DNA from: Rhizaria sp. SCN 62-66
Lineage: Eukaryota
Length of the DNA: 64,000 nucleotides
Assembly (NCBI GenBank): GCA_001724265.1
Contig: MEDY01000135.1
Location: forward strand, 1-64,000
Reading direction: 5' to 3'
The notes beneath the pieces are model-generated. The model saw only the letters and a list, made by a program, of their open reading frames with translations, searched no databases and was not told where the DNA came from. A program made the position numbers and the translations under genes. This document shows positions 4,466 to 63,500 of the stretch, piece after piece. The first letter of the stretch is position 1. Each line of letters starts with the position of its first letter.

Positions 4466-7400
4466 ATGAGTGAGCCCGAGGGCGGCGGCGCGGCCGCGCC
4501 CCCCGCACACTCCCAAGAGAAGCTCATGCTTCTCATCACTCGTCTGCGCGAGCGTCTGCAGGAGACCGAGCAGGCCCGCGACGCCGCGCTTGCGGAGAAG
4601 GACACTCTCTCCACGCAGAACGAGAAGTTGATGAAAATTGTTCCCGCAGTCAAGGCCAAGCTTGAGGAGACCCTCGCAGCGAAACAGGCCGCCGACGCCG
4701 CGCGCGCCGACGCCGAGGCCGCCCGCGACGCCGCGCTCGCCTCCGCCGCCGCGCCTGCGGCTGCGCCCGCCGTGGACACTGACGCTCTTGCTGCTGACGC
4801 TCTTGCTGCGGCCCGCGCCGACTGGGAGACCCAGCAGCAGACATTGCTCGCTGCTGCACGCGCTGAGGCCGAGGCCGCCACCGCCGCCGCTGTCGCTGCC
4901 GCCGTTGCAGCCGCTGTCGCCGCCGCCAAGACCGAGGCTGAGGCCGCTGCTGAATCCTAGGCCGCGGCGTGGGGTGCGAAGCTTGCCGCGCAGGTTGAGC
5001 TTATGGAGTCGTTGAAGACGCAGCTATCCGAGCTCGAAAGCTCTATGGCCGCCGCCAAGGCTGCCACCGCCTCCGCCGCCGCCGAGGCCGAGTCCGCGGC
5101 CATGGCCGCCGCTCAAGCCGAGGTCTCCGAGGCGCGCGCCGCGCTGGCTGAGGCCACTGCGGCGCTGTCCGCCGCGCAGGCCGACGCTGCTGAGGCCAAG
5201 GCCGCTGCCGCCGAGGCCAAGGCTGCCTCGGCCGAGGCTGTGGCCGCCGCGAGCGCCGGCCAGGCCGCCAGCTCGGACGCCGCTGCGGCGCTATCTGCGG
5301 CCGCCGCTGAGACTGCGGAGGCCCAGGCCGACGCTGCAGAGGCCCGTGCTGAGGCTGCCGAGGCCGCCGCGGCGCTGACTGAGGCTGAGGCCGCCGCTGC
5401 TGAGGCCAAGGCTGCTGCCAATGACGCCGTTGCTGCCGCCAAGGCTGACACCGAGGTCGCGAAGGCTGCTGCTGACGCCGCAAAGGCCGAGGCTGCTGCT
5501 GCGCGCGACGACGCTTTCCAGGCGCGCGAGGAAGCCGCCGGAGCGCGCGCAAAGGTGACTGCGGCGCTCGCCGAGGCCGACGCGGCGCGCAACGAGGCCG
5601 AGGCCCTCAAGGAAGCCGCCACCGCGCGCGCCGTCGCCGCTGCGGAGGCCGGCGAGGCGGGCGCTGAGGCTACGGCCGCCGCTGAGGCTGAGGCCGCTGC
5701 TGCCAAGGCCGAGGCTGCCGCCGCGAAGGCCGTTGCCGAGGCCGCCAAGGCTGATGTCGCTGCCGCTGAGGAGGACGCCGCGTTTGCCAAGGCGGCCGCT
5801 GCCGCCGCTGAGGCCGCCACCGCTGCCGCTGAGGCCGCTGCCGCTGATGCCAAGGCCGCCGCTGCCGAGTTTGAAGCCAAGGCTGAGGCCGCCGAGTCCA
5901 AGGCGGCTGCCGCCGCGAGCGAGGTTGCTGTCGCCGAGGCCAAGGCCGCCGATGCCGAGGCCAGGACCGCCGATGCCGAGGCCCGCGCCGCCAGCGCCGA
6001 GTGCGAGGCGAGTCTGGCCCGCGAGCAGGCCGCCGCCGCCGCCGCCGCCGCCGCCAATGGTGACTCGACCGCCGCGGAGCTTGTCGCCGCGCAGGCCGAG
6101 GCCGCGGCGGCCCGCAGCGAGGCCGCCGCGGCCAAGGCCGAGACGGAGAGCGCAAAGGCCGACGCCGAGGCCGCCAAGAACGAGGTTCAGAGCGTCAAGG
6201 CTGAGAGCGAGAGTGTCAAGGCTGAGGCTGAGGCCGCGAAGACCAAGGCTGCTGAGGCCGAGGCCAAGGCTGCTGAGGCTGAAGCCAAGGCTGCTGAGGC
6301 TGAAGCCAAGGCTGCCACGACCGAGTCCGAGGCCGCCAGCGCGCGTGCCGCTGTTGCTGCCGCTGAGTTTGCGTCCGCGACCGCCGAGGCCGCCGCTGTC
6401 GCCGCGCAGTCCGAGGCCGAGGCTGCGCGCGCGCAGGCCGCTGCCGCCGCGGCGGCTACTGAGGGCGACGCGTCGGCTGCAGCCGCGCTTGCTGCTGAGG
6501 CTCAGGCTGAGGCTGCGGCCGCCAAGACTGAGGCTGCCGCGGCTAAGTCCGAGGCCGCCGCGGCCAAGGCTGAGGCTGCTGCCGCCAAGGCTGAAGCGGA
6601 TGCTGCTAAGGCCGAGGCTGAGGCTGCCAGTGAGGCTACTGCGGCCGCGACAGCTGCTGCGGAGGCCGAGGCAGCTGATGCCAAGGCTGAGGCTGCCGCT
6701 GCCCGGGACGCCGCTGCCGCCGCCGAAGCCGCCGCTGCCGCTGCCACAGCCGCTGCCACCGCGGCCCAGTCCGAGGCCGACGCTGCGAACGTCCGCGCTG
6801 AGAGGTTCGAGGCCGCCGCTGCGGAGGCACGCGCACAGGCCGCCGCAGCCGCGGAGGCGAGCGGCGACGCGACCGCAGCCGCGCTCGCCGCCGCTGAGGC
6901 ACGCGCTGCTGCTGCGGAGGCCGCGGCCGGGACGGCGGAGGCTACTGCTACACAACTCAAGACTGCTGCTGCGGACGCTAAGGCAGAGGCTGAGGCTGCG
7001 GCCGCAGAGACTGCTGCTGCCAAGGCTGAGGCTGCTGCCGCCAAGGCTAAGGCTGCTGACGCCGAGACCGAGGCTGCTGCCGCGAAGGACGCTGCCGCTG
7101 CCGCGACCGCTGCTGCTGAGGCTGCAAAGGCTACTGCTGCCGCCGCTACGTCTGCGGCCTCTGCGGGCGACAGCGATGGCACCGCCGCGGCCGCAGAGGC
7201 GTCCGAGCGCGCCGAGCGCCTGCAGACGCAGGTGACGGAGACGACTGATAAGCTCAAGAAGGTGTTCGAGATGCTCAAGGCCGAGCGCGCGCGCACAGGG
7301 GAGCTGCAGGCGGACATCGAGACCAAGGCGGCGGCGCTGGCCGAGGCCGACGCGACGATCAAGAAGAAGGACCGCCGGCTGGCGAAGCTGGAGGAGCGCG

Positions 7401-9179
7401 CGACCGAGGTGCTGAGCCAGCAGCACGACTCGGCGCAGGGCGCGGCGGCCGAGGCGGCGGCCGAAACGACCCGGCTCAAGACGCAGGTCGCCGAGCTCAC
7501 TGCGCGGCTCGCCACGCAGGAGCGCGCGCGTGCCGTGTCCGAGTCGATCGGCCGCGAGATGCAGCAGCAGCTGCAGGAGAACAAGGAGCTCCGCCGCCGG
7601 CTCGAGGTCGAGCGCGCCGCGCACGAGGCCGCCATTGCCGGACAGGTACGCCAGAGAAACGCGACATGAAAGCAAGATATTTGTTTGTATTCCTTACATC
7701 AAGACCTCCTATGTTTAAATGTACACTGTAATTTTTCTGCTGTTCCTCCTGTTCGATTGTCTCACCCAACGGCGTTTCATTCACATTTCTCCCGATTTTG
7801 CTTTGTTCTCGCTTCAGACGGAGGCTTCTGCCGCGCGCGCGGACGAGGCCCAACGCGAGGCTGAGGCGCGCGAGGCTGAGCTCGTCGAGGTCCTCCGCGA
7901 GGCCCGCGCCGCTGCGCACGCGGCCGAGGAGCGCGCGCGCGCCCTGGAGTCCGACGTGGCCTCCGCGCGCGCCGAGACCCGCGACGCGGCCGCGCGCGGC
8001 GAGCGCGCCGAGGCCGAGGCGCTGGCCCGCGCCGCGGAGGCCGAGGCCGAGGCGGCGGCGCAGGCGCGCGACGCCGCCGCAACGGCGGCAACGGTGGACG
8101 CGCTGACGGCGGAGCACAGCGTGCAGCTGCAGCAGGTGACGCAAGCGGCCGAGAGCCGCGTCGAGACGCTCCGGGCCGAGCTCGCCGCGCTGCGCAGGCA
8201 GACGGAGCAGCAGCAGCAGATGCAGCAGGCGCAGCAGCAGGACGCCGCCTTCCCGCGGCAGCAGCAGTCCGCGGCGACGGCGGACGGCAGCGGCGCCGGC
8301 AGTGACGCCCAGCAGTCGCAGCACAGCGGCGGCGCGAACAGTGGCGGCGCTGCGGCCGCGGCCGGGCTGGGCGACGCGGAGCTCTCGCTGCTGAGCGCGG
8401 TGCAGGCGCGGCGCGACGAGATGCTGCGTTCGCTGACGGACGAGCTGGCCTTCTGCAAGGGCAAGATGGCCGAATGGCGCGAGTCGATGGCGGAGCTGCA
8501 GCAGGAGCACGCAGCGGCGCGCGAGCAAGTGCGCCAGCTCACCGTGTCCCGCTCGCGCGCGGCCGTGGACCTGGACTACCTCAAGAACATCATGGTGCGC
8601 TACCTGCAGTTCGACCAGCTGGGCCTCGAGCCCGAGCGCCGCGCCATGGTGCCCGTGATCGCCAACATCTTGCAGTTCTCGCGCGAGGACTCGGCCGCCG
8701 TTGACGCCGCCGCGCGCGCCGCGCAGCAGCGCGGGTGGGGCGCCTGGCTGGGCGACGCCGTGGCCAACTTCGTGCCCGACAACCTGCTCCCGCTGGCGGG
8801 CATCCCGCCCCCGCCGTCTGGCTCCTCCGCAGTCTCCAAGGCCGAGGACGAGGCGGGCTCCACCGGCGCCGGCGGTGGGCTTCACCACGGCAGCATCGGC
8901 GGCGCCGGTGCGACGGGCGCGGGTTTGGGGCCCGGGTCGCCGGCCAGCGGGCCCCTGAGCGCCGCCGCGGGCGCCGGGCCGGGCAAGATCGAGCTGGACC
9001 CGATGTCGAAGCTGCAGGCGCGCAACATGCAGCTCAAGCTCCAGGCCAAGAAAGAGGCCGCCGCTGCCGCCGCCGCCACCGAGGCTGCCGCTGCGGCTGT
9101 GTCGCCCGCCGCTGCGCCCGCGCCCGCGCCTGTGGCGACTGCAACGCCGTCCGGTGAGGCTGGGGCGGTGCAGGAGTGA
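4466..9179 (+). CDS. GRIP-domain golgin: long Ala/Glu-rich coiled coil with a C-terminal GRIP domain, about 1513 aa, exons 4466-7645 and 7818-9179, one in-frame TAG at 4958-4960
   Basis: ORFs 4466-4960 and 5003-7669 share a frame and are separated only by TAG. Intron 7646-7817 (GTACGC..TTCAG). GRIP motif VDLDYLKNIMVRYL..ERRAMVPVIANILQFSRED. Ends in TGA. Confidence 0.85.
4958..4960 (+). other. in-frame TAG, putative sense codon, in the golgin (AAES*AAAWG)
   Basis: GAA TCC TAG GCC GCG GCG TGG; coding-style sequence on both sides, no AT-rich intron nearby. Confidence 0.8.
6245..6313 (+). repeat. 21-nt coding tandem repeat (heptad KAAEAEA x3) within the golgin coiled coil
   Basis: AAGGCTGCTGAGGCYGARGCC repeated three times. 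Confidence 0.8.
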
Positions 9180-16094: not shown

Positions 16095-18951
16095 ATGTCG
16101 AGTCGTTCAAGCGGGGGCTTCTCGAAGCGCTTTAAGAGAGCTCGTGTCGTCGTGCCCCGCCCGGCCTCGCGCCCCACCAACACATGCGCAATCTCCCGCA
16201 GCGAGGTTGAGCGCGTGGCATCTGTTATTGCTGCCGCAGCCGGCACGCCTGAGCACATCTCCGCGGACTGCGCGCTCGGCAGCCACCTGCTCTCCGCTCT
16301 TTGGGCGCCCCCAGCGAAAGTCAACGTGAGGGACAAGGCTCCGCTCCCCTCTGCAGCCGTGGCCGCCACTACGCCACCAGTCACGCCCCTCGCGAAGTTT
16401 TCGTTGGTTGGCAAAAGCTCGGCGGACCCGGAGCACGTTGAGGCCGCGCGTGCGACGCTGAAGCAGCTGCTGACGACACTCCGCACCCAAGCTCGGCTCA
16501 TCACGAGCAGTACTGCGGCCGCCACCGCCGCGGCTACCGCTTCTGCCGCCGCCGCTACTGCTGCTGCTGCTGCCGCCATCGCGGGGGCTGACGGCGAGGG
16601 CAAGGCTGGCAAGGGCAGTCGCCGCAAGCGCACAGCCCCGTCGAGCTCGAGCTCGAGCTCAAGCGGCGCTGCTGCGGCCGCAACGGCGAGTGCGAGTGCG
16701 GCGGCGGTGGCGCTGTTGCCGGCTGGCGCGGTGGCGACCGTGCTGGCCGTGGCCGCGACCGGCGACGCGGGCGCCCCGCGGCCGCTGATGTGGCTGTGGG
16801 ACACCTTGGCGCTGCGCCTAATGCTGCCGCAGCCAGCCGCGCTGCTCGCAGCCAGCGCGAATGTGAATGACAACAACGGCGCTAACGGCGACAGCAACAC
16901 CCCCGCTGCGGGTAACAACAACGCGGCGCCCCCTGCGAGCGCGGGATCCGCGTCCCCCGTGCGCTGGCGCTGTTTGTTTCTGATTGCTGCCGCCATCGTC
17001 GAGGGCCTCATGCTGGCACAGGTACGAGGCTCACTTTACACTACAACAAAGCCGGTGAATTGTCGATATATTACTTGGTGCATTGTGTATTTTCCTTAAA
17101 ATTACGTTAGCTTTTATGTTTCCAACTCTAATTTATTCTTGTAACACGCTACCTTGTCTTCACATCCCCAGCCCGACAACGCCGACGACACCAACACAAA
17201 TGCTGACGACGAGATTAAACCAGAACCAGAGCCCAACACTCTCCGGTCTGCGGCCCTGACCCTGCCGCCCCTGTCCCGCTCCGCGCTGTCGGCGCTGGTT
17301 CTGTCCGTTGCCGCTGGCGCCCCGTCTGCCGCCGCGGCCGCGGATCCCGGACTGGCCTCGTTCCCCGCCGCCGCCGCCGCGCTGCTGCCGAGCGCAGTAC
17401 TGCGCGCTGCGCGTCTCCTCGAAGCCGTCGCCGCCGCCGCCGCCGCCACTGCGCCCGCCGCGTTTGCGCTCGCGCTCCCGCAACAACTCTCGCAGTCGCT
17501 CTCGCTGCCAGCGGCCGGCGCCGTCAACACCGGCAACGCTGCGGGCTCCGCCGCGGCAGCTGGCTCTCCGGCCGCGGCGAGCTCTGTGGCGACTGCGAGC
17601 GCGACGGAGGTGACGGAGGCGGCGCTGATCGCGCTTGTCGCGGCGGCGAAGCGGGCCGCCGACGATGCCGCGGCCGCGGGCCTCAGCAGCGCTGCGGGCG
17701 TCACGAGCACGGGCCCAGGGCTGGCCGCCGCCGCCGCGACCGCGGTTGCGAGGGCCGCCGCGGACGCTGCGAGTGCGGGGCCGCGCTACACGCTGTCGCT
17801 GTCGACGCCCAAGGCGGCGGGCGGCGCGAATAGCAGCTTTGCTATTGGCAGTAGTCTGGCTGCTGGCGGCGGCTTTGTCCTGAGTAACCTCGCCAGCGCC
17901 AGCGCCAATGCCAGTGCGAGTTCGCACGAGACGTAGCAAAGTGTCGGTGATGCTGAGGACTGGAGCTACGCCGAGTCCAGTGACGGCGCACCAGTGCGCA
18001 ACGCTCTCGGGCCGCTACTGCCTGTACTCGAAGCAGCAGCGACCGGGGCAGTATCGCTGCCAATTGGCGTGAGCTCAAGTACAAACGCGGACGCCGGCCC
18101 TGGCGCTAGCCCTGGCGCGGGCGTTGTTTTAACACCAGTCGCAACCAGTGCTGCCGACATTGCCACTGCTGCTGCCGCAGCTGCAGCTGCTGCCAGCGGA
18201 CGCGCTAATGCCTCCCCTTCTGTCTCAGCGCCAGCGAGCGTGACCAGCGCATCTGTGGTCGTCAGCGGTAGCGGCAGCGCCTGTGCTCTTGCTGTGTCTC
18301 TCGACGACGACGCGTACCGCGCAACCGTCCGCTCCTTGCTCACCGCGCTGACCGCCGCGCCATGGGCCGCGCCGCTCGCGCTCGCGGGCGCCGGCGCCGC
18401 CCCTGTGGGGTACGGCGCGGGGCTGCGGGCGCTGGGTGCGCTGCCGCCGCCGCTGCTGGCGCTGGCGCCGCCCTGGGCGCTCGCGGGCGGCGCGCAGCGG
18501 CGGCGGCTCACGGCGCGGCAGCGCGCGCTGGCTAGGGACGCGGCACGCGCCACGGCCGGCGGCGGCGCGCGCGAGGAGGTGCTTGAGAGCGGCACGGACG
18601 CGCCCGGGAAGCGCTGTCGCAACGCAGCGTGCGGGGCCAAGGGACGCGTCAAGGAGCTGCTCATGGCGACCAGGTACGGAAGATTACTGCATCATGCACT
18701 CTCTTATTATTGCTTTGCTTACATTATATTGAATCTTATGCGTATATTCTAAATTTGATGCGAATACTTGTTTTACAATACTGTGATTCTTTGCTCATCG
18801 AGATATCGAATGTTTCTCATTCTTCTGCTTTGCGCACAGGCGTGGCATCGCCAAGGCCGAGACGTGGGGCGCGCAGGACAGCGAGGGCGACAGCGTGCGC
18901 TTTGCTTGCGCGGCTTGTGGCGAGACTTGGGTCGAGAAGGAAGGCTGGTGA
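16095..18951 (+). CDS. Ala-rich protein with a C-terminal TFIIS-type zinc ribbon, about 846 aa, exons 16095-17021, 17172-18673, 18840-18951, one in-frame TAG at 17934-17936
   Basis: Introns 17022-17171 and 18674-18839 (GTACG..CAG) restore the frame. The spliced C-terminus reads KRCRNAACGAKGRVKELLMATRRGIAKAETWGAQDSEGDSVRFACAACGETWVEKEGW, ending in TGA. Confidence 0.7.
17934..17936 (+). other. in-frame TAG, putative sense codon (SHET*QSVG)
   Basis: ACG TAG CAA AGT GTC; ORFs 17154 and 17994 are in the same frame. Confidence 0.75.
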
Positions 18952-19201: not shown

Positions 19202-21630
19202 TCACTTGCTCTCGCCCGCAGCTGCAGCAGGAGCGGCGGCCGCAGGGGCGGCGGCGGCCACGACGACGGGCTCGGGCATCTTGAGCGACGCCGCGGGCGG
19301 CACGGTCTCGGGGAACACCGCGTCCTTGATCTTGCTCAGGACGCTCTGGCCGGTGCCGGGCGCCTTCCTGATGTCGTACTTGCCGTACACATCCTCGGCG
19401 ATGAGCACGAGACAGAAGCTCAGCTCCTTGAGCGCGCCGCGCATGGCGAGCGCGTCCTCGCCGGCCAGCACGGCGTCAGTCGCGTCCAGGCACCCGCGCA
19501 CGCGCTCGCACGTGCGCGGCTTGAGCGCGTGGCGGAACTCACGCATCGCGCCCTCGACCTTGCTGTACTTCTCGCGCACGCGGTTGCGCGTCGACACCAG
19601 CTCCATCAGCGCGGCGTCGTCGGACGCGTACAGAGACGTGTCGGCGAGCATCTTGTTCATCTCCTCCGCGCCCAGCCCCGTCGCGGAGGCCACGGCGCTC
19701 TGTTCCTTGCCCGTCGCGTGGTCGCGGGCGGAAATGCTTAGCACGCCCGAGACGTCGATCTCGAACGTGACCTCGATCTCGGGCACACCGCGGGGCGCGG
19801 GTGCGATCTCAGACAGCTCGACGACCGACAGCAAGGCGTTGTCCTTGGACAACGGGCGCTCGCCCTGTATCACGCGCACGCGCACAGTCTCCTGGCCGTC
19901 GGCCACAGTGGTGAAGACGCGCGAGACCTTGACGGGCAGCGTCGAGTGGCGCGGCACCAGCGGGGTCATGACGCCGCCCTCGGTCTCCAGGCCGAGGGTG
20001 ATGGGCGTGATGTCGAGCAGCAGCACGTCCGAGACTGTGCCGCGCAGCACGCCCGCCTGGATCGCGGCGCCCGCGGCGACAACTTCGTCGGCGTTGATCT
20101 CCTTCTCGGGCGCGCGGCCGAAGTGCTCCTCGATGAGCTGGTGCAGGCGCGGCCACTTGGTGGAGCCGCCGGCGAGAACGACGGCATCGAGCTTGTCCTT
20201 GGTGATACCGGCGTCCTTGAGCACGGCGTCGCAGATCGGCAGCGTGCGCTGCAGCAGCGGCATCATCAGGTTGTCGTGCTGCGAGCGGCTCATCTTGAAC
20301 TCAAGATGCTTGGGCCCCTTGGCGTCGGCAGTGATGAAGGGCACGTAGATGGTCGTCTTGAGCGAGTGCGCAAGCTCGACCTTCGTGCGCTCCGCCTGCT
20401 CGCGGATTCGCTGCACGGCCAGCGCGTTGTCGCTCAGGTCGATCTTCTCCTTGGCCTCGAAGTCCTTAAGCAGGAAATCGATCAGCGCGGCGTCCAGGTC
20501 CGCGCCGCCGAGGCGCCCGTCGCCGCCGGTGGCCTTGACCTCGAACACGCCGGACTTAACGGTGAGGACGGAAAAGTCGAAGGTGCCGCCACCAAAGTCG
20601 TACACGGCCACCGTGCCCACGTCGTTCTTCTTCTCCAGGCCGTACGCCAGAGCCGCAGCGGTCGGCTCGTGGATGAAGCGCTTGACGTTGAGGCTATATC
20701 AAGAAGAAAGAAAGCAAGAGGATCGGGAACGCAATACATGTGTGAGTGGAATCAACAAAAGTATGTGAAGTAAACAGGAAAATGTAGTGCAAATAGAGAC
20801 AGCCCTGAAGTGAGTGATCACAAGAGAATGTTGTGCTCGTGACATACCCAGCCATCTTGGCGGCCTCCTTGGTTGCATTGCGCTGTGCGTCGGAGAAGTG
20901 CGCCGGAATGGTGATAACAGCCTGATCAACCTTGCGACCAAGCGTCTCCTCGGCGGTGAGACGCATCTTGGCAAGAATGTGTCCCGAAATGTGCGAAACG
21001 GGGGTCTTCTTGCCGTTGACCTCAACCCATGCGTCGCCGCCGGCGCCCTCGACGATCTTGTAGCCCACGCGCGACAGCTCGGCCTGCACCACGGGGTCCG
21101 TGAACTTGCGGCCCAGAATGCGCTTCGTAAAGTCGAACGTGTTAGCCAGGTTCTGCACCTGCTGGCGCCGCGCGGGGGTGCCAACGAGCACGGTGCCGTC
21201 CGATGTGAAGGCCACCACGGAGGGCGTCGTGCGCACACCTTCGGAGTTTTCAATGATACGGAGCGCCTTGCCATCCATCATGGCCACACAAGAAGTGTTA
21301 GTGCCGAGATCAATGCCCACGACATCGCCCTGTGACGGCGCGGTCGCCGCGAAGGTGCGGCGCGGAACGGAAACGATGTTGCTGCCAATAAGGCTCGCGC
21401 TCGCGCTAGTTGCGGTAGCTAGGGCGCGGGGGGCGAAAGTGACAGTGCGGGAAAGCGCCGCACGCTGTAAAAGTATAAACATACGTAAGGTATGACATAT
21501 ATGAGTGGGGTTCGTCTCAGACTCAGTGATAGAGAGCTAGAAGGTACACAATGTGATGAGAGAAATGGGAGGGCCAAGTGTGGTGTGGACGGACCTTAGT
21601 AAGTCCACGCAGGACAGAGGACCTAAGCAT
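19202..21630 (-). CDS. divergent mitochondrial-type Hsp70 (DnaK family), about 714 aa, exons 21630-21595, 21464-20848, 20693-19202
   Basis: Arg/Ser-rich presequence [50 protein letters not shown], the mitochondrial/proteobacterial-type GDAWVE and GPKHL, and the linker DVLLLDITP. Two GT..AG introns restore the frame. Ends in TGA. Confidence 0.9.
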
Positions 21631-22135: not shown

Positions 22136-25100
22136 TCACTCGCTGTCATCGAGCATAACAAAGTCATCGTCGTCGACAGCTGTACCACGCGCGCTCTGGC
22201 GCTCTATAGCGTTCGCACCCGCACTCTGGCCCAAGTACATGACCTCAAAGAGCCTCATGCGCTTCTGCTTGTGCGTCAACGCATCATCAGCTGCGTTGCC
22301 ACTCCCAGCTGCGCGCGCATTCGCTTTGTCCTCCTGACTCTGGAGCCGTTGAAGCTCGATCTGCTGTCGCTTAAACGCCTCCCGCTGCTCCAATGCGGCC
22401 CGCGCGGCCTCCGCAGCCTCCTTCTTCTCCTGCGCAGCCTTGTTTCGCGCCGCGTCTTCCTCAACCCTCGCGGCCGCCTTCGCAGCCTGCGCGGCGACCT
22501 CGCCTCGCGCGCGCGCGGCTAACTCCGACGCGCCGTGCCGCCGCCACAGCGCATCGACCGCGGCCGCAGCGGCGCCGGCAACGGGGGCGCCAGTCGCGGG
22601 GCTCGTCGTGATCACGCCCAGCTCCACGCTGCCCGCGCCCATCTCAGCCTCCGTCTCAGCCGCAGCCGCGGCCGCAGCCGACACCGACGCCGACGCCGAC
22701 GCCGAAGCCGACGCCGAAGCCGAAGCCGAAGTAGCGGCTGCGGCCGCTTGCTCCGTTCCTGAATGAGTAAGCGCCGGTGACTGTGTGAGTGAGGCGCGCC
22801 AGCGACGGGTAAGCGCGGTATGGCGCTCGCAGAGCCACTGGAGCTCCCAGTTACCGCCCAGCGCCGCGGGCCCCCTGGGCGGCCGCCACTGCGGCGACGC
22901 GCTGTGCGTCGCGGGCGTGAGTGTGAGCGCGTCGGTCAAACCGTCGTGGTCACGCTCCAGCGCCGCTTCGGCCTCAGCAGCGGCAGAGTCCTCTTCGTCA
23001 GCATCCATGGCGCTGCTTGAGTGGGCAGCGAGTGCTTGCGACGACCTGCTTGTGTGGCCTGCCGAGTTGTCTTTAATGGCATTATGTTTGTTGCTGCTGC
23101 TACCGACATTGGAGTCAACAATTCTGTCGATGTCGTTATCGTTGATGGAGTCAAAAGTACGCACAAATACGGGCACCTCAGGCACTGAGTCGGCATCATC
23201 ACTCTCAGCTGTACTGACAACATTTCGAGCACCGCGCGCCCCCTCGCTCTTGACAGCTGGCCCAGCAGAAGCAGTGATATCGCTGCCGTTGTTGTAGTCT
23301 ACCATGTCAGCGCTGCCGCTCGACTCGTCCTCCGCCGCCGCGTTGAGCCGCAGCCAGGCGCGCCTGGCCCAGGCCCGGACGCCGCGCATGCGCCTGGCGC
23401 TTCCGTCGGCGTAAAACGCCGACGCGCCCGGGTGCGCGCGCACGAGCGAGTCGAGCAGGCTGGCGACGGCGACGGGCACGGGCAGCACCGACAGCGGCAG
23501 CGCCAGCAGCGCGGGGCCCGCCGCGGGGTCCCACGCGCCCGCGCCGGCCCCCGCGGCGCCGCGGTACAGCGCGGTGGCGACTGAGGCTAGCGTGCGCGCC
23601 CAGTCCGCGGGCGCGGGCTGCGCGGAGCAGAGCCCGACGAGGCGGCGCCACGTGAACTCGGGCACCAGCTCCGCGCCGGGGCCTACGCCGCCGTAGCGCT
23701 CGCGCAGCGTCCACGTCGCAGCGCCGCTCGCAGGGCCCGCAGCAACGGCGCCCGCGGTCGTGGCGGGCGTTGCGGCGGCGTAGGGCGACGCAAAGGAGGC
23801 CGAGATGGCTTGGGAGGAGTAGATGGATGTGCCGCAGCTGTTATGCCCTGGGACACGGAGTTGCAACGCGCCAACAGAGCCGATGTTCGCACTCGCAGCG
23901 TTACCAGACCTGTGTCCGTAGAGGCCAGATAACGCCTGGGGATGTGCGTTCGGATGCAACTGGCGCTGCTGCTGCAGAGGATTAGCTCCTGCTGCTGCTC
24001 CGGCAGCGGGTTTGCGCGGCGGCGGCGGAGGCAGGACGTGCCTCACGGATGCAGCGATCGCAGTCAACGGGCCAATGTACCCGGTGTCGCCGCCCCCCAT
24101 GCCACCGGTGCCGAGCGAAACCAGCCCGGCGGCCACGGCGCCCACGCCGTCGTTGGCCTGCCGCGCGGGCAGCTTGAGCGTGAGGCCGCGCAGGGTCTTC
24201 ACGCGGGACAGCGCCACGTACGTCTGCCCGTTCTCAAACACGCGCGTGAGGTCTACGATGGCACGGTCCAGCGTCATGCCCTGCGACTTGTGCACCGTCA
24301 CTGCCCAGGCCAGGATCAGTGGGATCTGCGTGCGCCGCGCAATAACGCGCCGCATGTGCGAGTCGGCGGCCGCGCTGCTGCCGCTGCTGCCGAGGCCGTC
24401 GGCGCCGCTCCCGAGCCCCAGTGCGAGCCCCGCGTCGTCGGGAGGGGCGCGCAGGTCGTCCACGCACGGGGAGCCGCCGCGGGCCACCTCACCGCGCGCC
24501 TTGACGCTGACGCTCGCGCCGGGGGCCGAGAGTGCGAGGATGTCGGGGTCCATGCTCTTGAACCGCGGGTCCGAGCGCGGCACATCGACCTCCCACGCCT
24601 GGGGGTTCATCACGAGCGCAATGTCGCCGCTGAAGCGCACCACGGGCAGCCCGGGCGCGTGCGACACGGCCAGGCAGTGGCGCGTGCACTTGTCGCCGCC
24701 GCTGCTTTCGCCAGTGAGCTCGCTGCAGAAGCACGGCACGTCGCTGTCGACCTCGGCCATCACGGCGGGGTCGCAAGCGAACACGTCGTCGTCGTCCGCG
24801 GCCGTGTGCGCGCCCTCCGCCGCCGCGGCCGCGTCGAGGTCGGCCAGGACGATGGGGCCCTCGCTAGGCAGCAGGCGCAGCGCGGCACGCTCGAGCGCGC
24901 GCGGGAGCTGCCAAAGCGCGTGCCGCAGCCGCCGCAGTGCGGATCGCGGCGTGAGCGCGGCGTCGGCCGCGTCCTCGGTCTCGTCGCAGCTCACGGCGCC
25001 GCCCGCGGCACGCACGCGCGCGCGCGCGGCGACGGTCTGCTCGTCCGCGACGCGGCGCGCAGCGGTGACGGCGGCCGGGGCCAACGCGCGCACCATCGGC

Positions 25101-30189: not shown

Positions 30190-30651
30190 GCTAAGAACCG
30201 TTGTCGATCGGAAGTCGCAGAGGACTGGAACGGCGAAGGAAGGTGTCAGTGGTCTTTCTTCGCTCGACGATGAAAAATATTAGTTCAAGAAACACAAATT
30301 TGAGAGAATAAACCTGGATAAAATTATCATGCGGGACTAGTTGTATATATGTTACAGACGGAGAAATCAGTGCGAACTCCTACATTTTAACTACGCCTTT
30401 GAAGCGTTGACTCGGCGGGCAGATGGCGCGATCTCGGATCGCACTATATTTTGTCATGCAGCGTCATTTATACCGAATTTCTGCAAAATATTGCACTTTT
30501 TCTGTCTTTTTTGAACTTACCCCTTTACCCTCTTCAAATATCATCTCCACACCTCTTTTTTATTCACCTCTTTGTCACAGAAAACCTCCCCCAGTTTCGC
30601 ACTCCCACTTTCTCGTGCGGGTCCGTTCCTCTGGCTCGTGCTCCCGCGCGT

Positions 30652-35524: not shown

Positions 35525-36066
35525 GATTGCTGGACGATATGAGGTGTTGTTCTTGCTCTACACTTTATTTATTCGTGTGACTGCACTTATTTGTTATTTT
35601 CACCAAGATTAAACTTAGTTTAGTGATACATAGACTTACTTTTGCACAGGACATCTGATGAGCACATCACATGTATCTCATACTTTCACCAGAATACAGA
35701 TGACAATCGAGAGCATACTCGATAACCACCAGTTGTAAAGACGGCAATGGCTTGATAGCTGTAAGAGAACGTTGGGAGCAAGATGGAACAATGGGTTTGA
35801 CCATGATGAGTGCTTTTTTTAAAGTTGCCATAGCGTGGCGTACACAACTACTGGTGGCCCCGCTGGCAGACCCCAAGCGGTCAGATCGCATGGGCCTGTC
35901 CTGCTTTCAATCTTCCGACAGTAAACAAATAGCCTGTGATTTCGAATGAACTCTTCTTGTTTGTTTTATTTTCATTTTTCGAATTTGGCCTCACTTGACT
36001 ATCCCTGACATACGCTCTCCAGAACACCGACCGTTTCTACAGCTGCGACTCTTTTCCGGCGTCAAC

Positions 36067-39000: not shown

Positions 39001-39090
39001 GTCATTTTGCGCTCTTTCCTGGCGCAGAGGACGCGCAAGCCCGCGGCGCAAGCTGCAGCGCAGATTGCCGGCAACGGTGGCGACGAATAA
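36067..39090 (+). CDS. coiled-coil protein with a degenerate C-terminal RING-like finger, about 1007 aa, intronless, one in-frame TAG at 36985-36987
   Basis: ORFs 35995-36987 and 37315-39090 are one frame broken only by TAG. Long heptad region, then CAVCAKPMTEPCVVVETGEGCCRAC. Ends in TAA. Confidence 0.75.
36985..36987 (+). other. in-frame TAG, putative sense codon (VAAS*VAAL)
   Basis: GCC AGC TAG GTC GCT GCG CTG; the frame stays open to 39090. Confidence 0.8.
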
Positions 39091-53214: not shown

Positions 53215-54538
53215 GAAACCGGGGGACTGAGGTGAGGGGAGGGAACAGCAAGATGTGACCGCTTCAGTTAGAAAGGTTGGGTCAGTGTCTGGAGTGTCGC
53301 TTATTTCAATATAAGCACAACGAGGCAAGGCACTTGGTCTGATCATGAATGATTTTTATACGTACTACATGGAATGGACTTGGACTTGTGCGATTAATCA
53401 TGAATGACCAGAGGGAAGATGATAACATATAAACGCTACAATAGGGACATGTATAATGATTTAAATAAATACAATAAGCACTAATTTCTCGCCTTACTTC
53501 TCATCCACACTCGCAACACATGGTGAGTGTGTAATTTGAGGCCGTATAGCGCGGTGATAGGAATAAAAGAAGAAAAAAAAAGAAGTGTGCAAAGTTGGAA
53601 GTGAACTTGGTTCCTTCAGAAGTTTATGCTCGTATTCGTGCAAAAGTTAACGCACCAAATAGCAAAAAAAAATGAGGATTATGCCTATAAATCAAAATTT
53701 AAAATATTTAATGTAAATAAATATATTTGACGGAACAGAGTTCACCCCCAATGGGTGGCTACTACGACTGGTGAGCAAAGACGGGGAAACACCTTTTGCA
53801 CGAACGACAAAGACTGGTTAATTTACGGCACTGGAAATTTCGCCGGCTTCATCCAGCCGTGGTGATAAAGAGGTTGTGAATACGGCGATTGACAGAGTTG
53901 GTAATATTAATTTTCTATTTCGATTGCTTCCGCCATTTTCTAGTAGTCAGGACAGAGCTTGTTTGGGAGCTTAATAGGATGGCTCGTTTGACAAGCAGAA
54001 CGAAGTTTTTCTTGCCCTTTTAAAAGGGTTTTGTGCTTATCAATGCTTATTTTGGGGTATTAGGAGTGAAGACATCAGTTGGAAAGTTGCACGCGCCACG
54101 TTTTCTTGCGTATATCTTTTTTGGCCATTAGCTACGATCTCTTTTAGTTCTCACCTTACGTTCAACTTCTATGCTCTTTGCGACGTCGCTTCGCACTTTT
54201 TAATTCCCGTCCCCGTAGGAGCGACGCAGTTTCCCCCGGCGTCCTGCTCATTTCTATTCTTCTCATTTCTTTCACGAGGCCTAGGTTTTATTCCTACGGC
54301 TGCGCTCTGTACTCCAGTATTTGACCGATCCCGCTGTTGTGCCGATATTCGATCGCTCCATTGTAGGATCTCATTCGGAGTCTTTGCTTCCTCCTCCGGC
54401 CTTGAGCCGTCCTCACAACTGTTCACACTTATACCAATCTTGACAGCGACGTAAAACACTCGTGAGACTTTTCCTGGCACAAGAACTGAAGGAGTGGACA
54501 CGTCAAGACACCAAGCACGTGGAGTTATTGTTACGACA

Positions 54539-57500
54539 ATGTTGCGTTGCTTTCGCTTCTTGTCAGCGCATCTACCGATGCTGCTATTGCTGCTGTCTTC
54601 GCTGTCCATTTTTCTGCTCCAAGTCTCAGCGTCATCGAATTTCTTTTTTCCGTCCACCAGCAACTCTCGCGGTGCCAATGTGTTCGTGCACTTCGTTCTT
54701 GATGGCCCGCACTCCGTCAACGTGGCCACCACTATCTTTCTGTCGACGCTCTCGCCCACGTCCTCGATCCTGTTCGCGGAATTCAGTGGTGGTCTTTCAA
54801 ACTGTTTTTTTCATGACATTACGTCGGCGTCGACCCTGTCTGCGATCTCTTACGCTGCGTCCACGTACACCTTCACCGTCACACACACCGCCGACTCGTC
54901 CTTGGCTAAGCTCGTCATCTGCTCTGTGCTGGTGGCCGACGCTGCGGATGTCAATGCGAACAGCACTGCGACAGCGAGCTTTGTTACAGACACTGTGGTA
55001 GTAGCCACGGCCTCAATCTACATTGCCGCGTCGTTTCTCACTCCAACACTGTCGATGTGGCGTAACAGCGACCAATTCGTACAGTCGCGCCAGAGCACGC
55101 CGGTGTACATCTACAACACTTTCACCACGCCAGTGGTTTTGGGCAGCGAGGCTGGTAAGTCTACGGCGTTTATGACTATTAAGGTTGCTTGGGCATCTGA
55201 GCTAATGACCTGTTCCATGGTCTTCGAGGGCGGACTTGCGGCAACGGTCGCTGCTCCAACCGTCTCAGGCACTGTTGCGACGTACGCCGTCACGTTCCCG
55301 ACGCAGATGCGCGAGACCACCGAGTTCGAGCTCCGATGTCTTGCATATTGGCGCTCTTCCAATGAGTCTGTTTTCTCCGGAGTCAGTATCGATGTTGCAC
55401 TTATCTTCCCGTCTGGATTCACGCTCACCAAAAGCCCAAGCTATTTCTACTCCATCGAGTCGACAATGAACAAGACCTTGATCCCTATTGCTAGCACCAG
55501 TGATGGCGAGTGGGTTCCCGCACTCTCTGGCTCGTCGCACGTGCTCGGCCTTGCGGGTAACGTCGCTGCGGCGAACAAAAGCGGTACTTTTTATTTTGCT
55601 ATGAAATCCCCCGTTGGGGCAGAGGTCTACCGCGGCGCGCCGGGTTCATACTGTTTCCTCTTCGCAACACCGCTTAAGGACGACTTCACGGGTCCCGCTG
55701 TGTCACACTCACCCCACACACGCGTTAATAGTCTCACGTATGGCTCTGAGGGATGCACGTTCAGTGTTGCGCAAATGACTATCACAGGCACTGTGTCGGC
55801 GGCGCAAACGTCGCTCCAAGTGACTATGGGCATTGTTCTTATGGATCCCCCCCTTTCGCTCACCAACAATGTCCCGCAGTCCTCTGTGACGTTCACCAGT
55901 ATCCAAAACGTGTACCGTGGTGTGCCAACTGTTCTTGGCCTTTCGCCACTCTTTCAGACCGCGCCGACATACGTTACCACGTTCACGCCGGCCGGCCTAT
56001 TTGTTCCGCCGCGCTCCTTTACCGTTACCGTGGGGTCTGAAACTCTTCTGTACCCGGACGACTGGGGCCGGCAAATGCAGAACGCACCCGTGACCTACCG
56101 CTCCAACATCACTAGCCCTCGCCTTTACACGCGTCCCCGGGCTCGCTACTTGCACGCGCAGACTACCAACGCGGCCTCTGCGCCGGTGCTTGGCCGGCTG
56201 TCACCCGCGACGTCCGGCCAGCTCACGTTCTGGTTTGGCGGCATCGCGTTTGAGAAGGCCGAAGACGTGGCGACATCGATCAGCACAATTCGACCCATTC
56301 TTGCCGACCTGTGGATGTTTGACGCGCTTGGTAACACAACGACGCTGCTGTCAGGCGACCCGTCGCAAACGCGCTCCTCAGCGCGGTTGTATAATAACGG
56401 ATAGTTCGTTCCCGTTGCCGGCGATTACCACCCAGATCTTCACCCCGCGGCGCGGCACTCGGCGTCGCTCGCTTTCGACGCCGCGCTCGAAGTGCTTTGG
56501 CTCTACGGCGGCGCCGAGGGACTTATGGGCAACACCACGTCCGACACGCCTATTGCGCAGCAACGCTTCTTTGATGATCTGTGGTCCTATAACCTCAAGA
56601 CCAACATGTGGGCGTGGTGGCGCGGCAGCGTGGTCCCGTTGTATCGTGCGCAGAATGCGACTTTATTCGGCTCGCTCCCGCCGCTCGCCGGCGCCGGTGC
56701 TGCAGCGCACGATGGCGTGTTGTTGATCTACGGCGGCCTGGTTATGAGCGCGGCCAACGCGCCTGAAGGGCGCAAACTGCCGTACTTTGAGCTTGACGCG
56801 ATGATGATGTTCAACTCCTCCGATGGGAGTATCACGCGCTTGGCTGGTGGTAGCAATGGTTACGACTTCACATTCAACGGCGGGACTCCCTTCGTTGGCG
56901 CCGCGACAAGCCCGCCTGCGGCAGCGTATCCGACGCTAGTGTGGAACACGCACGCCGCCACTGGAACGAGCGATGTGTACATGTACGGCGGTGTGCTTGC
57001 GCCCAGTCAAGCCGGATTCAGCTACTTATCGCTCGACCTGGCCAACTCGCTCAACCCGCACTCTGACTCGAGCGTTCTTACCGGCCTCTGGCGTTTCTCA
57101 GTTTTGTCTAAGATCTGGACTCGTCTCGACGCGCCCACTGTGGCCATGTCGGCTAACCGCGGCCACCCGCGTATTGCGGAGCCGTTGCAGTCGGGCTTCC
57201 TCTCGCACCCCGGCGGACGCGTGTTTGCGGCGATGAACATTGCGCCCAACGGTGATGTGTATCTCTACGGGGGTCGTGGTCACTCGAGTGGGTTTATTAT
57301 TACACCTAGCGGGTACGGCATCAGCAATGCGACTGTGCAGACGCTGACGAGTGTGCCTGCGCTTTCACCATTTACTTACCCGCTGTCGAGTCGGTTTGTT
57401 AATGGCGCCGATTCAAACGCAGTGACATTGTACGCGTTTGTCTACTCGGCCAGCGAGCTTCAGAATTCTGGCGTCAGTGTCAATGTGCCGCTTAACGACT

Positions 57501-60500
57501 TGGACATTATGCTGCGTCTTATGTCAACATCACTTGCCATCGGGGCGAGCACGACAACCGCCTTTAAGGTGCGCGCGATGTTGAAGACACTCGAAGGCGT
57601 ATCGTTCTTTAATGATACCGATAAGTACAACGCTGCTGCGCTGCGTCAGTGGGGCGAGGAAGTGTTTTTGTACCCTGAGCACGCGTTTGACGCGCGCACA
57701 TGGAAGGCCGGTACGTTTATGGCTGTCAACTCGCCGATGCACTCCACCGGCATCGACAGCGCGTTGGAGCCCAACCAGTCGCTCCTGCTCATCCTTCGCA
57801 TCGAGTATTCGTTCAGCACAGCGCTGGGTTTGGCTGCACCGACTTATGTTGTCGACATGCTGCAAACAAGCGGCGATACAGGTGTAGCGCTTATCACTAT
57901 CCCTGGCTATCCGTTCAAGAACGAGTACTTCACTCGGTACGCTTTTAAGCCAATTCTGATGCTGCGTTCGCGGCTCCCGCCCATTGGCATGCCTTCGCCG
58001 CGATCGTCTTTGTCACTGTACTCGCGCCCGCAGCTCGATGACCTATGGGTCTTCTCCGCGTCACTTCTCCAGTGGCGTTTGCAGTACGGTTTTCCCACCG
58101 CTCTCAAGCGCAACGTTGTTTCGGGCTCCCAACGGCAGTCCGGTGTCGACTACCATTGGCCCGGCGCGCGTCAACAGGCGTCACTTATGATTCCGACATC
58201 GTTTACCACCGCTACAACCGCGTCGGCGTACGACGTGTCACTGTTCCTGCACGGCGGTTACGCCGTATCCCCCACGGTCCACGAGGACTACGAGCTTGGA
58301 CTCAACCCAGATGCCCCCATCGCATTGCACCGGCGTCGCATCACGTTCTACGATGACCTGTGGTCGATCGACATGGGGCCGCAGGTTATTGACAGCGCGG
58401 CGCCCGGCGCAGCGGCGTATTCGACGAACTCGGGGGCCTCCACCGCGGGGCTGAACCTTTACACACGTGGAATGCCAGTGTATGACGAGTTCATGTACTC
58501 GCGGTTGTCGCAGTCGCTCGGCAATACGTGTCCCTCGAGCTCCAGCTGCGCATCCACGGCCACGTGTTTGGCGGGCGGCGGGTCTTACTTCTGCCGCTGT
58601 GCGTCGTACACATTCGGTGCGAGCTGCAACAACACTGCGCAAGAAATTGCTCTTATGCAAGGCATGTTCAAGCCGATCGGAGGCACCACGACTCTGGCCT
58701 CTCTCGACTTACAGGCGCAGCACAGGCCCTTTAGCGCGGTCGCAGTGCACCCCGTGACGAAGGAGGTGTGGGGCTACGGTGGCGTCACATCTAACTCTGA
58801 TCACGGGCCGCGCATACAGTCATCGTTAGTCCGCACAAACCTCGCCTTACGGACACACTCTGAAGTGTCGTACGTGCGGGGGCAGACACAAAGCGAACAG
58901 CTCTCGTTCACTACTTCAGTGACTGGCTTCTACCCCGTTAAGGAGGTCGGTGTGACGTACGCGTCCGCCACGGAACCCCCCCCGTCCGCTGACGCTATGA
59001 TGTCTTTTTCCCCCTCTGGCAACGCGCTCTATTTGTACGCAGAGAGTCTCGTGTGCTCACCGGGTGTGTGGTGGTTCAACACATCTTCTCTCACATGGGC
59101 ATCGATTGGCAGCTTCATCTCTGAGAACTACCCCGCGACGAACGATCACAGTGCAGTTTATGGCAGCTACGGTCAGTACAATTATTCGTACCACCCCGAC
59201 GCGCGGCAGGGTGCGGCCAAGGCGAGTCGCCCCGGTTTGATGTGTCTTTATTCGGGTTCGCAAGTCTACTTCCCCGACTTTTCCGCCGGCACTAATGATG
59301 ACTTATGGTGCGCGCGCACGACTGATGACCCCGCAGGGATCACTTGGTCGCGTTTGGCGGGATTGACGAGCCGCAAAGTCGCTGGCTTGCTGCCCGTAGC
59401 CGCACAGCCCGGCGAGTTTAGCACCGTGTGCACGCCTGGTGCACGTGTTGGCGCTTCGCTGGCTTTCTCGACCGATGGCTATTATCTGTACCTCTTCGGC
59501 GGCAGCTTGGTGCAGTATGGAAGCACAGCACAGGCGCTTATGGCTGATTTGTGGGTGTTTTCGATAACCAACATGACATGGGCCTATCTTTCCGGCCCCA
59601 CAGAGCCTGTCACATCGCTCATGTCGTCGCATGCCTCGAGTCACTCAATCACCTCAGGCTCGCCCTCGCGGTTGCAGTACCCCGGCGCGCGCATGTTTGC
59701 CTCCATGGCAGTCTCCGGCGACGATATGCTCTACGTCTCTGGCGGTATTAGGCTTCCCACGGAAGGCACAGGCGCAACCATGGTTGAAAAGACTACGTTT
59801 GCGACTTTCGTTCGTCCATTGCACGACACGAACACAACGCTGCCGACAGCGGTGTGGGCGCCGTCATTCACCAACAAGACAGCTGCACTTGCGTGGGTGT
59901 CGATTGAAGTTGAGACAGGCGCTGAACCTATAACAAATCAGTGGTTCTGGAGCACAAACTTCATTAACAACGGCCGCTTTGGCACAAGTATGGTTTTTCT
60001 CCCGTCGACTATTAGTGTAGAGGCTCCGTTTGCGACTGACAACACGATCATGACAATGACAGCGGGAATGCAGATGCGCGGTTCCGTCGTCGCTGCTACT
60101 GCGTATTACCCATATTTCTCGTTCCCGCTTTATGACAGCGAAACCGCTGGTCTCGTGCTGCGCACGTCGCCGTGCCGTGTGAATCCATGTCTGAATGACG
60201 GTGTCTGTACGATCTGCGCTGCCGAGGATGCTATGTGCTCCAAAGGTTACATTGACACTGGTATTACATCCTCAGCGTACCATTGTATTTGCTCGACGCG
60301 ATTTTTTGGTCGCCACTGTGAACTCACGCGCGAAACTTATAGGCCCCCATCGGCAGCAACCTCACTCCCGTGTTTCCAGAACGCTGAGTTTGGAACGTCG
60401 ATCTCAAGCCCGTGTCAGTGTATCATCACCAGTCCTGCATCTTTTTTCGGTGTTTTTTGCTCACCTCTTGTTTCGTATTCGATCTATCACAATATCTCAA

Positions 60501-63500
60501 GCATAAATGACTTGAATCTCGCCACTGACGCAGCTATTGCTGTTGTTCACAATGCCCCCGAGTTCATGTCACTCTCGCTTGGTGCAGAGATTAACAGTAC
60601 TGTGATCTTCGTTGCCGGTGGCTCTACTGAACCCAGCAGCTGGGTTACTTCGGATGTGCTCACAGCAGTACTTGTCACGTCACGCACCACAGTCAAAGTC
60701 CACCCTCCAACGAGTAACAACAGCACTAAGGCGATCTACTCGGGCCCCAACACGTACATCGGCCGCCACATCGGTGCCACACTTGTCTACTCACGCTCTT
60801 CGGGAATGCTGTTTCTCTACGGCGGGCTTCATTTTGACCCCACAGGCACGCGGCGTAACCTATACGAGCGCCACTGGCTCATCACGCCTGGCGCCATGGG
60901 AACAGTGCGGCTGCCTCAGATCCTCACGCTCGAGTCACGCCGGGACGTGGTTCAGATCAGGTACAAGCTGGACACCCCCTCACAGGTCACGAGTGTGGAT
61001 CAATCGGGCCTCACGTTTCACAGTCGCTCCGACCTCTCTGTTTACCCTGTAGGCACCCCCGGCGCGCGTGCGTACCACTCTGCCGCCGCGGTAACGATCG
61101 GTGAAGTCGAGTGGATTTACATGTTCGGTGGCGCAGTAATCAACTCAGGCGACACTGACGTCGAGTATCTCTCTGACTTGTGGCGTCACCGCGCGCTTGC
61201 CTCGGGCACTGTGCAGTGGGAGTACGTTGGCTGCTCTCTCGACACCGGATACTTACCTCCGGCCAACATCACGATAGGCGCTTCGCTTGATATCAAGGAT
61301 GGGTGCCCGATGGCGCGCTCGCACACCCAGCTCGTCGCTGTTGGCAACACGCTCTGGCTTGTCGGCGGCCGCGGTGTGCGCGGCGGGTACGATGACGTGT
61401 GGTCGTTCAACACGGAGACGGAGGTCTTCACACTCCGCTCAGGCCTCGCTCTCAAACCTCTTCCCGCAACGTCGTCGAAACATCTCATCAGTGCTTTCAC
61501 GGGCGATGTGGCGACTACGACCATGGGTTCTCGGTACGCACACCGTTGTGACGTGCTGCCGACGGGTACTTCCGTGTACTGCTACGGCGGTTTGACTGCA
61601 CATGGTGTGGCGGCTGATATGTACCGCCGTATTTTGCCGATTAATCTTGCCAAGCATGTTCATTACATTGGCATGAACGATGTGGTTAATCCCTTCACTC
61701 TTACGAGGTCGGGTCTCTTCGTCGCGTTGCTCCCAGTGGCGCACCTTGATGCACCAGGTCTGACGACGCAGAAGCAGACGATTTATGGCGTGACTTTTTT
61801 TCTGGCTGACGATTATGACATGACGAGCGATGCAATGACCGAGCTCGTGTTATCCATCGGCTATCTTGCAGCCGCGCCCACAGATGAACCGAAGGATATT
61901 GACGTGCCGCTGTCAAAGACGACACACTTGATCAAGGCATCAACATTCACCAACCCGCGCACATTTCAGTTCAGCTTACAAGCACCGGTCGAGCGGACGG
62001 CGTCGTCTCAGTATCTTGTGATCCGAATGAGTCTGTCAGTCACTAGGCCAACAAGGATCGATACACGGTTTGCGTTTGGTTCCACTGCAACAATAATTAG
62101 TCAAGTTCCCAACACCACAAACGATTATTTCACAACCTACAACAATTCGCGCACCAAGACGTGCTTTTTCTTCAACAAGGACTACAGCTAGACGTATGAG
62201 ACAACTATAATCCCACAGATTAGGCTACAAATGCAGCCACCTGCTGAGCAGCAGGGCCACACGACTGTTGCTGAGCTCATCAAAATCGACACGACATCCG
62301 GGCTTATTTCCCAGGTCTTTGGACCCTCAACGCAGGGCAGTGTGCCGCTGTCTTTGTCCAAGGCGAGCATCTTTGCGCGCCCCACTGACGTGCCGAACCT
62401 TCCCGACTCCGTGCTGGAGCCGCTCGATGGCGGTGTGGCCGTTGCAGCTGGTATTTTAACAACCGACTTCTATGCATCGTCAAAGTTTGTACGGCCGTGG
62501 ACAGTACCGGCGGCTGCGCTGCCTGTGTTTGCGATGTTGCCACTTGGAAAACCCACTCTTGATCTCATTCCTTCGTTCATTGTGTCGTCGGGCATGTGGC
62601 GAATGGAGACAGCGCTGTCAGGCACGACGTGGTCTGGTTCTCACATCATGCTCAGCCGCTCGTCGCCGATTACGCAGAGCAACCAAGTCTTTTCCGCGCA
62701 AGGCATGAACACAATTTTTGGAGGCGTGCGCCCTGCGTACTACACTAACACTGTCCCTGAATCGCCTTATCCTGTTGTGACTGCAGCGACCTTTGCTGCG
62801 ACAATGACGAGCGTTGAGCTTCTTTTCACCACAACCACGCAGCAACCGCGCTACAGCACATCAGCGTCGGCTGAAAACTGTGCTCTAATGTTTCCCGCCG
62901 CGAACCTTGCACACTTCGGCAGCGGATATACATGTGCGTGGTTAACTCCCTCTGCGTTAAGTATCACACTTGGCGCATCTTTTACTCTGCGCCCCGACGA
63001 CACGTTAACTGTACTCGGTGATGTCATCCGTAGCGGCAGTACACTTGCTGAGGGACAGACCCCGCTGTATCTGCCCGAGACTGACTTGCTCGTTATAACT
63101 GCGACTACTCCTGTAGTGCCGACTGTTGCACTCACAGGCTACAATACGGTCGGACCCTGCGAGGGGCTTACGCTCAGTTCCGCTGGCAGTGTTCACGCCG
63201 GTGGCCTTGCCTTTGAGTATGCTTGGAGCATTACTGGCACGGCGGCGCAGCAAGACAAGCTCGCCGCCATCGTGAGTGCGGCGTACGGTTCCCGTAATAG
63301 CAGTATCCCGTTTACTGCAACTACGTCACCGCTCTATGCGCCCACGGTTACTGTGCCCGTGGGCGCGATGGTGGAGCTGTTTGGCGCCACAGGGGAGGAG
63401 ACTACAACGGCGACGTTCACGCTGCAACTCACCACGTGGTTTGGAAAAACTTCTACAACAAGCTTCTCAGTTTCTCGTGCAGCGTCGATGTTACCTCAAA

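Follow-up and report, generated by a model that had tools for sequence, protein, structure and literature searches.

The codon UAG is most likely read as an amino acid, with UAA and UGA still terminating translation, in the nuclear genetic code of the eukaryote represented by the first 64,000 nucleotides (nt) of contig MEDY01000135.1 (Rhizaria sp. SCN 62-66; this whole stretch is hereafter referred to as the window). The window has a GC content of 55-71% and carries eukaryotic genes on both strands. The core of the original prediction for this DNA, namely an intron-bearing eukaryotic genome that reads UAG as sense and stops at UAA and UGA, is supported by codon-usage scoring of reading frames, homology extending over two TAG codons, introns, gene ends and independent assemblies. 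All eight of the in-frame TAG codons that it named are present where they had been placed, as CTA on the plus strand for the three minus-strand sites, in the following genes and frames:

4415..7669 and 7719..9179, plus strand: exons of a GRIP-domain golgin gene (GRIP, Pfam E 1.8e-10, in exon 7719..9179)
4958..4960, plus strand: TAG in the Ala-rich coiled-coil exon 4415..7669 (1084 amino acids, aa) of the golgin-like gene, with 181 open codons before it and 902 after
17934..17936, plus strand: TAG in a low-complexity open reading frame (ORF), 17145..18752 (535 aa), without a Pfam family; the least secure of the eight
22136..30279, minus strand: gene for a Pif1-like helicase, interrupted by two AT-rich introns and carrying large inserts of low complexity (PIF1, Pfam E 2e-25)
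25112..25114, minus strand: TAG in the last Pif1 exon, 22136..25330 (1064 aa), at a local GC of 0.79-0.81
29872..29874, minus strand: TAG in the N-terminal part of Pif1, within a polyglutamine (polyQ) run of CAA/CAG codons, read-through frame 25408..30279
29896..29898, minus strand: TAG 8 codons upstream of the TAG at 29874, in the same Pif1 polyQ context
36985..36987, plus strand: TAG in ORF 35950..39090 (1046 aa), coiled-coil with a Cys-rich C-terminus and no Pfam match, with 345 open codons before it and 700 after
54539..64000, plus strand: kelch/EGF/PKD/REJ receptor gene, starting at a signal-peptide-like Met and continuing past the window end
56402..56404, plus strand: TAG at the beginning of the first of the kelch propellers in this giant receptor gene
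62189..62191, plus strand: TAG in the receptor gene, past the last kelch domain and ahead of the REJ region

Reading frames and homology across the TAG codons

As predicted, the frame beyond the TAGs is long, remaining open for 271 to 1928 codons or, after one TAG, for 7 codons to a second TAG and then for 1070 codons. Beyond 17 ORF ends at TAA or TGA, the frame remains open for 2 to 29 codons only. Long open frames by themselves are weak evidence in DNA of 55-71% GC, and therefore the six frames were scored on both flanks by codon usage trained on 3017 codons from Pfam-supported exons without any TAG. A scan of the window for stop codons flanked on each side by 150 or more open codons gave 16, comprising ten TAG, one TAA and five TGA codons. 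With 450-nt flanks, the frame of the stop codon was the best of six on both flanks at five of these 16, the TAGs at 4958, 17934, 36985, 56402 and 62189, all of which belong to the predicted set. The remaining five TAGs and six TAA or TGA codons are accounted for by antisense or offset frames, by an intron or by a position ahead of a start codon; the sole TAA with long open flanks, at 54452, is upstream of the signal-peptide Met of the receptor and is not in the best frame upstream. With 300-nt flanks at all eight predicted sites, the claimed frame was best in 15 of 16 flanks, the exception being the downstream flank of 17934, where it was second best at 300 nt and best of six at 450 nt. The interruptions in the best-scoring frames are thus all TAG, with no TAA, TGA or frameshift among them, as had been claimed.

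The domains attributed to the interrupted genes were found in part: GRIP, PIF1, kelch (E 1.7e-17 and others) and REJ (E 5.3e-10) are recognised by Pfam, whereas the "Zn ribbon" gene at 17934 and the "RING-like" gene at 36985 lack Pfam support. No Pfam family was found at E <= 0.01 in four of the six read-through proteins, and matches below the curated cut-offs (zf-DBF, HATPase_c, Pif1_2B and UVSSA_N) serve as hints only. UAG is used sparingly, at 8 in approximately 18,000 coding codons by a rough sum of ORF lengths, and the genes that bear it are long, fast-evolving or of low complexity, with none among the conserved housekeeping genes of the window.

Homology across TAG codons is clearest in the receptor gene. 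Its read-through frame in the window (54455..64000, plus strand) comprises 3182 codons, contains two TAGs and is open at the window end; the full open frame has 4643 codons and encodes approximately 4615 aa from the signal-peptide-like Met, including several kelch propellers. Splitting of such genes under the standard code had been anticipated and is seen in the protein collection, where the kelch/REJ gene appears as three proteins, P0133, P0127 and P0128, cut at the TAGs. P0127, the ORF between the TAGs at 56402 and 62189, is recorded from four contigs, the ORF that ends at 56402 likewise recurs on four, and P0128 is the continuation of the receptor past the window and adds a GPS domain. The three proteins are taken as one gene because they align colinearly with P0180, a cluster mate of the receptor that is a single uninterrupted ORF of 4671 aa: P0006 197-3180 and P0180 204-3159 form one alignment at 35% identity, and P0128 matches P0180 2584-4450 at 59% identity.

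An exhaustive HMMER search with the 1001 aa around the TAG at 56402 returned 48 proteins at E <= 0.001, ten of them at E <= 1e-30, and six relatives, with lengths of 265 to 3754 aa, span the TAG itself. Blocks that are invariant in the seven aligned sequences flank the site, DLW..N.T.LL.GDP upstream and PAARHSA downstream; there is no gap, and the TAG column lies approximately 20 residues past one invariant run and approximately 12 ahead of the next. The TAG at 62189 falls inside a single 562-column BLASTP alignment with P0135, opposite K. Judged from these alignments, each receptor TAG stands for exactly one residue. UAG occurs in frame within regions conserved on both sides at 56402 and 62189, by colinear alignments, and at 25114, which has the 2B-domain motif GLCNGSRG and the HKSQG motif of Pif1 on either side in one frame.

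The close relatives of the receptor come only from metagenome-type collections (ENA, Logan and JGI/IMG). A search with P0127 gave no match in the genome contigs of the collection, and a search of viral contigs likewise gave none. Ten loci at 24-33% identity, found with alignment A2 against genome contigs (nine in bacterial metagenome-assembled genomes and one in a metagenome chromosome), were taken as unrelated kelch proteins. Comparison of the giant receptor protein with itself revealed no internal repeats usable as paralogous columns. A metagenome scan recovered two short loci of the same receptor gene family, both with an in-frame TAG, in L001 at 700, inside the tblastn alignment, and in L002 at 156, and reading UAG as sense may be a trait common to a clade. 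L001 also has an AT-rich intron, an apparent 1-nt frameshift near 2715 (frame 3 to frame 2, with no gap) and an in-frame TAA at 3683-3685, which stands opposite R/E/K/T/Q of the homologues directly past a conserved Trp.

Gene ends, introns and competing explanations

All visible genes were predicted to end at TAA or TGA. No gene ends at TAG, as claimed; the count is 15 ends (5 TAA and 10 TGA) rather than 16, and two candidate TGA ends, at 3252 and 32535, were rejected as lying within introns. Beyond the 15 ends, the frame stays open for 2 to 26 codons, and GC drops in most cases to approximately 0.3 to 0.5. All eight internal interruptions are TAG and none of the 15 ends is, a distribution with a one-sided exact probability of 1 in 490,314. 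Among these ends, UAG does not act as a terminator, and UAA and UGA are both kept as terminators.

The explanation that survives best beside a sense UAG, albeit an improbable one, is that UAG is ambiguous or leaky, terminating translation in some genes and being efficiently read through within others, either by context or position, as in Condylostoma, or by a near-cognate tRNA-Gln. Coding TAG is indeed very rare (eight sites, and 0 in the 3017 conserved-exon codons), just 15 gene ends are seen, and the window holds no tRNA(CUA). Against this, none of the 15 ends is TAG, so that use of the same codon as sense and terminator is not observed in this small sample. The bases at +4 are G, C, C, C, C, G, T and A, in agreement with the claim that all four occur, and the codons downstream of the TAGs are unrelated to each other, leaving no common readthrough context in the flanking sequence. 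In addition, a protein of approximately 4600 aa encoded with two TAGs requires efficient decoding to be made at all.

It is very unlikely that UAA has been reassigned as well, giving a classical UAR code with UGA as the sole stop, in which in-frame TAA would be missing simply through the rarity of A-ending codons. CAA and CAG occur at 9:106 in conserved exons and, with eight TAGs, fewer than one in-frame TAA is expected; with A-ending codons this scarce, the lack of in-frame TAA carries no information. L001 contains the in-frame TAA described above, and two of the five TAA ends have a TGA 6 codons later. At the TAA ends at 2064, 39090 and 49603, however, GC falls to approximately 0.3 (0.28-0.33), and 25 to 88 AT-rich codons with one to five further TAA or TAG codons precede the next TGA. 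One of the three is representative:

39088..39090, plus strand: genuine TAA terminator, at which GC falls from 0.65 to 0.32 and the next in-frame TGA is 25 codons on, past one TAG and two TAAs

At least three TAA ends are clearly genuine, and the other two are ambiguous. UAA is considered to be kept as a stop because these three ends precede AT-rich sequence that contains TAA or TAG before any TGA; the window shows neither in-frame UAA nor UGA as the sole stop.

Correction of the TAGs in RNA under the standard code, whether through U-to-C editing that yields CAG or through their removal with introns of an unusual, short and GC-rich kind, is likewise hardly probable. The introns of the window are real, as predicted: eight were defined, all AT-rich and all with a G|GTAYG donor. 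Two served as controls:

20694..20846, minus strand: HSP70 intron, GTATGT...TATAG, 153 nt, GC 0.40
40385..40553, minus strand: BCKDK/PDK-like kinase intron, GTACGT...CCAG, 169 nt, GC 0.33
13720-13830, 7650-7750, 26950-27090, 25335-25440, 32520-32650 and 3110-3260: six further intron regions, in each of which AT-rich sequence follows a G|GTAYG donor

In the HSP70 gene, the match to profile positions 1-160 is in one frame and that to 161-595 in another, the two being joined across the 153-nt intron. Exons in general have 60-80% GC compared with approximately 30-47% in introns and in the flanks downstream of gene ends, a contrast that makes introns easy to spot. The 150 nt on each side of the TAGs have a GC of 0.44 to 0.81, compared with 0.33 to 0.40 in the two measured introns, and at six of the eight sites there is no G|GTAYG donor within 300 nt upstream. 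The TAG sites do not look like introns. Homologues are, moreover, ungapped at both receptor TAGs, where exactly one residue is needed. The mRNA at the TAG sites is unseen among the RNA pieces listed, which leaves room for correction; the pieces listed for X5 carry no other sign of editing, their three differences being C>T, G>A and T>C, the last of which, at 25750, is also present in X4 (a run not classed as RNA or DNA).

The assemblies bear on the least likely explanation, that the five genes are pseudogenes or that the contig contains assembly or sequencing errors. Four runs were compared over 17001-37000, the stretch with five TAG sites. Contigs of two other studies (X3 and X4) cover the TAGs at 25114, 29874 and 29898, which are unchanged there: an X3 DNA contig (record 3) covers 25114 with a single difference, at 23915, and X3 (record 5) and X4 (record 14) contigs cover 29874 with no other letters. 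The frameshift and two different in-frame stops of the related locus L001 speak for this explanation, but in the window the same TAGs recur in independent assemblies, the interruptions of the best frames are exclusively TAG, and approximately 4000 codons are open past the first receptor TAG.

Amino acid and decoding apparatus

Glutamine had been proposed as the amino acid and remains our best guess, a tentative one. The TAGs at 29874 and 29898 are read as SY*HQQQQAQ*QEQHQQ, with the TAGs as asterisks among CAA and CAG codons, and this polyQ context fits Gln, with Glu appearing less likely. The two alignable TAG columns are both variable, with E, T, A, T, E and V at 56402 and K at 62189. BLOSUM62 sums over the two columns for one-step neighbours of UAG are E +6, K +2, S +1, Q 0, L -10, Y -13 and W -19, suggesting a mild preference for a polar residue over Leu, Tyr or Trp, in rows that are related to one another. 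Glu is a weaker candidate than Gln, and Lys, Ser, Leu and others are possible and share the remainder. ORF ends inside the homology of P0134, P0138, P0140 and P0141 were dropped from the amino-acid inference, the aligned residues being inconsistent (I/S/T, M/L/L/M, S/L/N/G and W); judged from the proteins alone, each of these ends may be due to a stop codon, to an intron or to the end of a contig.

From established knowledge, sense decoding of UAG would be expected to involve a tRNA with anticodon CUA, which would pair with UAG but not UAA and insert the amino acid, together with an eRF1 that would have lost recognition of UAG or be outcompeted for it.

Several observations weigh against UAG as a sense codon, or against its reading as Gln. 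No tRNA gene of any kind was found in the window, no Rfam family was found there either, and no eRF1 was found in Pfam scans of the window proteins. None of the eight TAGs falls on a conserved column, and by the residues aligned to them at the two usable sites, Q ranks below T and E. The polyA metatranscriptome run X5 contains parts of the stretch that was compared; among the minority of RNA pieces listed for X5 and X8, none reaches a TAG site or an intron junction. The TAGs at 29874 and 29898 are uncertain and would be in the 5' untranslated region (UTR) if translation begins at the next downstream Met, and the TAG at 17934 is uncertain too, its ORF having no family and its downstream frame score being ambiguous. 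Occasional termination at UAG may be compatible with the small sample of 15 ends. Lastly, L001 could be explained as a pseudogene, as an error-prone contig or by a different code in its source organism.

Gene content and comparison with known codes

Among the other genes of the window are the following:

13111-15204, minus strand: glucose-6-phosphate isomerase (PGI) gene
minus strand, containing intron 20694..20846: DnaK-type (mitochondrial-type) HSP70 gene with a presequence-like N-terminus
minus strand, containing intron 40385..40553: BCKDK/PDK-like kinase gene

MPP6, an RRM protein and a lysine methyltransferase are also encoded. The HSP70 and PGI genes have TAGs ahead of their start codons; these are in 5'UTRs and were excluded as sense codons, as was the TAG at 40477-40479 in the BCKDK/PDK-like kinase gene, which lies within the intron. 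In the Pif1 helicase, the 2B domain and the HKSQG motif are approximately 320 residues apart, and a long N-terminal extension is also present. Within its gene, contigs of several runs, including DNA runs, join 25866-25869 to 26667-26671 and omit approximately 800 bases, some with 28 other letters between; the joined sides are approximately 20 nt in CAG/CTG-rich sequence. The joins may represent a length variant of a low-complexity insert or cross-matching of repeats. Splicing was rejected as their cause, given the short sides in CAG/CTG repeats and their presence in DNA runs.

The DNA of the window is present in part in 11 of the 13 public runs listed, from six studies, which are labelled as metagenomes of bioreactors, wastewater and activated sludge; one of these runs may itself be the source sample. 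The named matches of HSP70 are bacterial DnaK only, alongside one metagenome relative at 71%. Named matches of PGI come from stramenopiles, plants and Planctomycetota at 55-61% identity. On a tree of 29 of the 120 listed proteins, the window PGI clusters with two metagenome sequences beside plant and Planctomycetota PGIs, and falls outside the named stramenopile groups, the source of most named PGI matches.

Among the titles and abstract openings listed by full-text literature searches, none described a UAG reassignment in a wastewater or activated-sludge eukaryote. As far as two reports show, a nuclear code in which UAG is uncoupled from UAA has been found in just three cases outside ciliates: one fornicate, one rhizarian and one green alga (PMC11687900, PMC5304391). 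The present case adds genomic contigs with introns and gene ends, from an organism that recurs in several public metagenomes, and offers a tractable case for the joint evolution of eRF1 and tRNA(CUA). It also has a practical consequence, in that standard-code gene callers cut the long genes of this organism at every TAG. The low usage of UAG looks like an early stage of codon capture. It is conceivable, if rather unlikely, that the window belongs to a previously unsampled lineage, common in engineered and freshwater communities and midway through a code change, in which UAG is a rare sense codon and UAA still a stop, with a relative, L001, that already has both codons in frame; L001 may read UAA as sense too or may be a damaged copy. 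If the lineage is of this kind, the lineage would provide a natural series to test whether UAG capture precedes UAA capture in UAR codes.

The code proposed here, with UAG alone as sense, is most likely a further instance of a known but rare type, and is compared below with the cases described in the same two reports. Of the uncoupled cases listed in the original prediction, the fornicate Iotanema spirale and the rhizarian are borne out (PMC5304391); the list is out of date in lacking Scotinosphaera (UAG=Ser), Protocruzia tuzeti and several phyllopharyngean ciliates (PMC11687900). In I. spirale (Fornicata), UAG encodes Gln and UAA and UGA are stops, an assignment that draws on numerous UAG sites in conserved alignments as well as on a likelihood test (PMC5304391). 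The window resembles it in that UAG alone is reassigned and UAA kept as a stop in a non-ciliate, with Gln as the leading candidate, and differs in having eight sites, none in a conserved column, and in representing a GC-rich eukaryote of wastewater-type metagenomes. In the rhizarian exLh (Sainouroidea), UAG encodes Leu and is used often, occurring in frame 384 times in 71 genes, at sites where Leu is conserved (PMC5304391). There, too, UAG alone is sense, the terminators do not include UAG, and the organism is uncultured and represented by sequence data only; in the window, by contrast, UAG is seldom used, and Leu scores -10 over the two alignable columns. Reassignments of UAG alone to Gln, Leu and Ser have occurred in separate lineages, including phyllopharyngean ciliates, P. 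tuzeti and the green alga Scotinosphaera (PMC11687900). The window shares with these the uncoupling of UAG from UAA and differs in its ordinary GT-AG introns, its GC content of 55-71% and a PGI that clusters near those of plants and Planctomycetota; no result obtained here pointed to a ciliate or a green alga.

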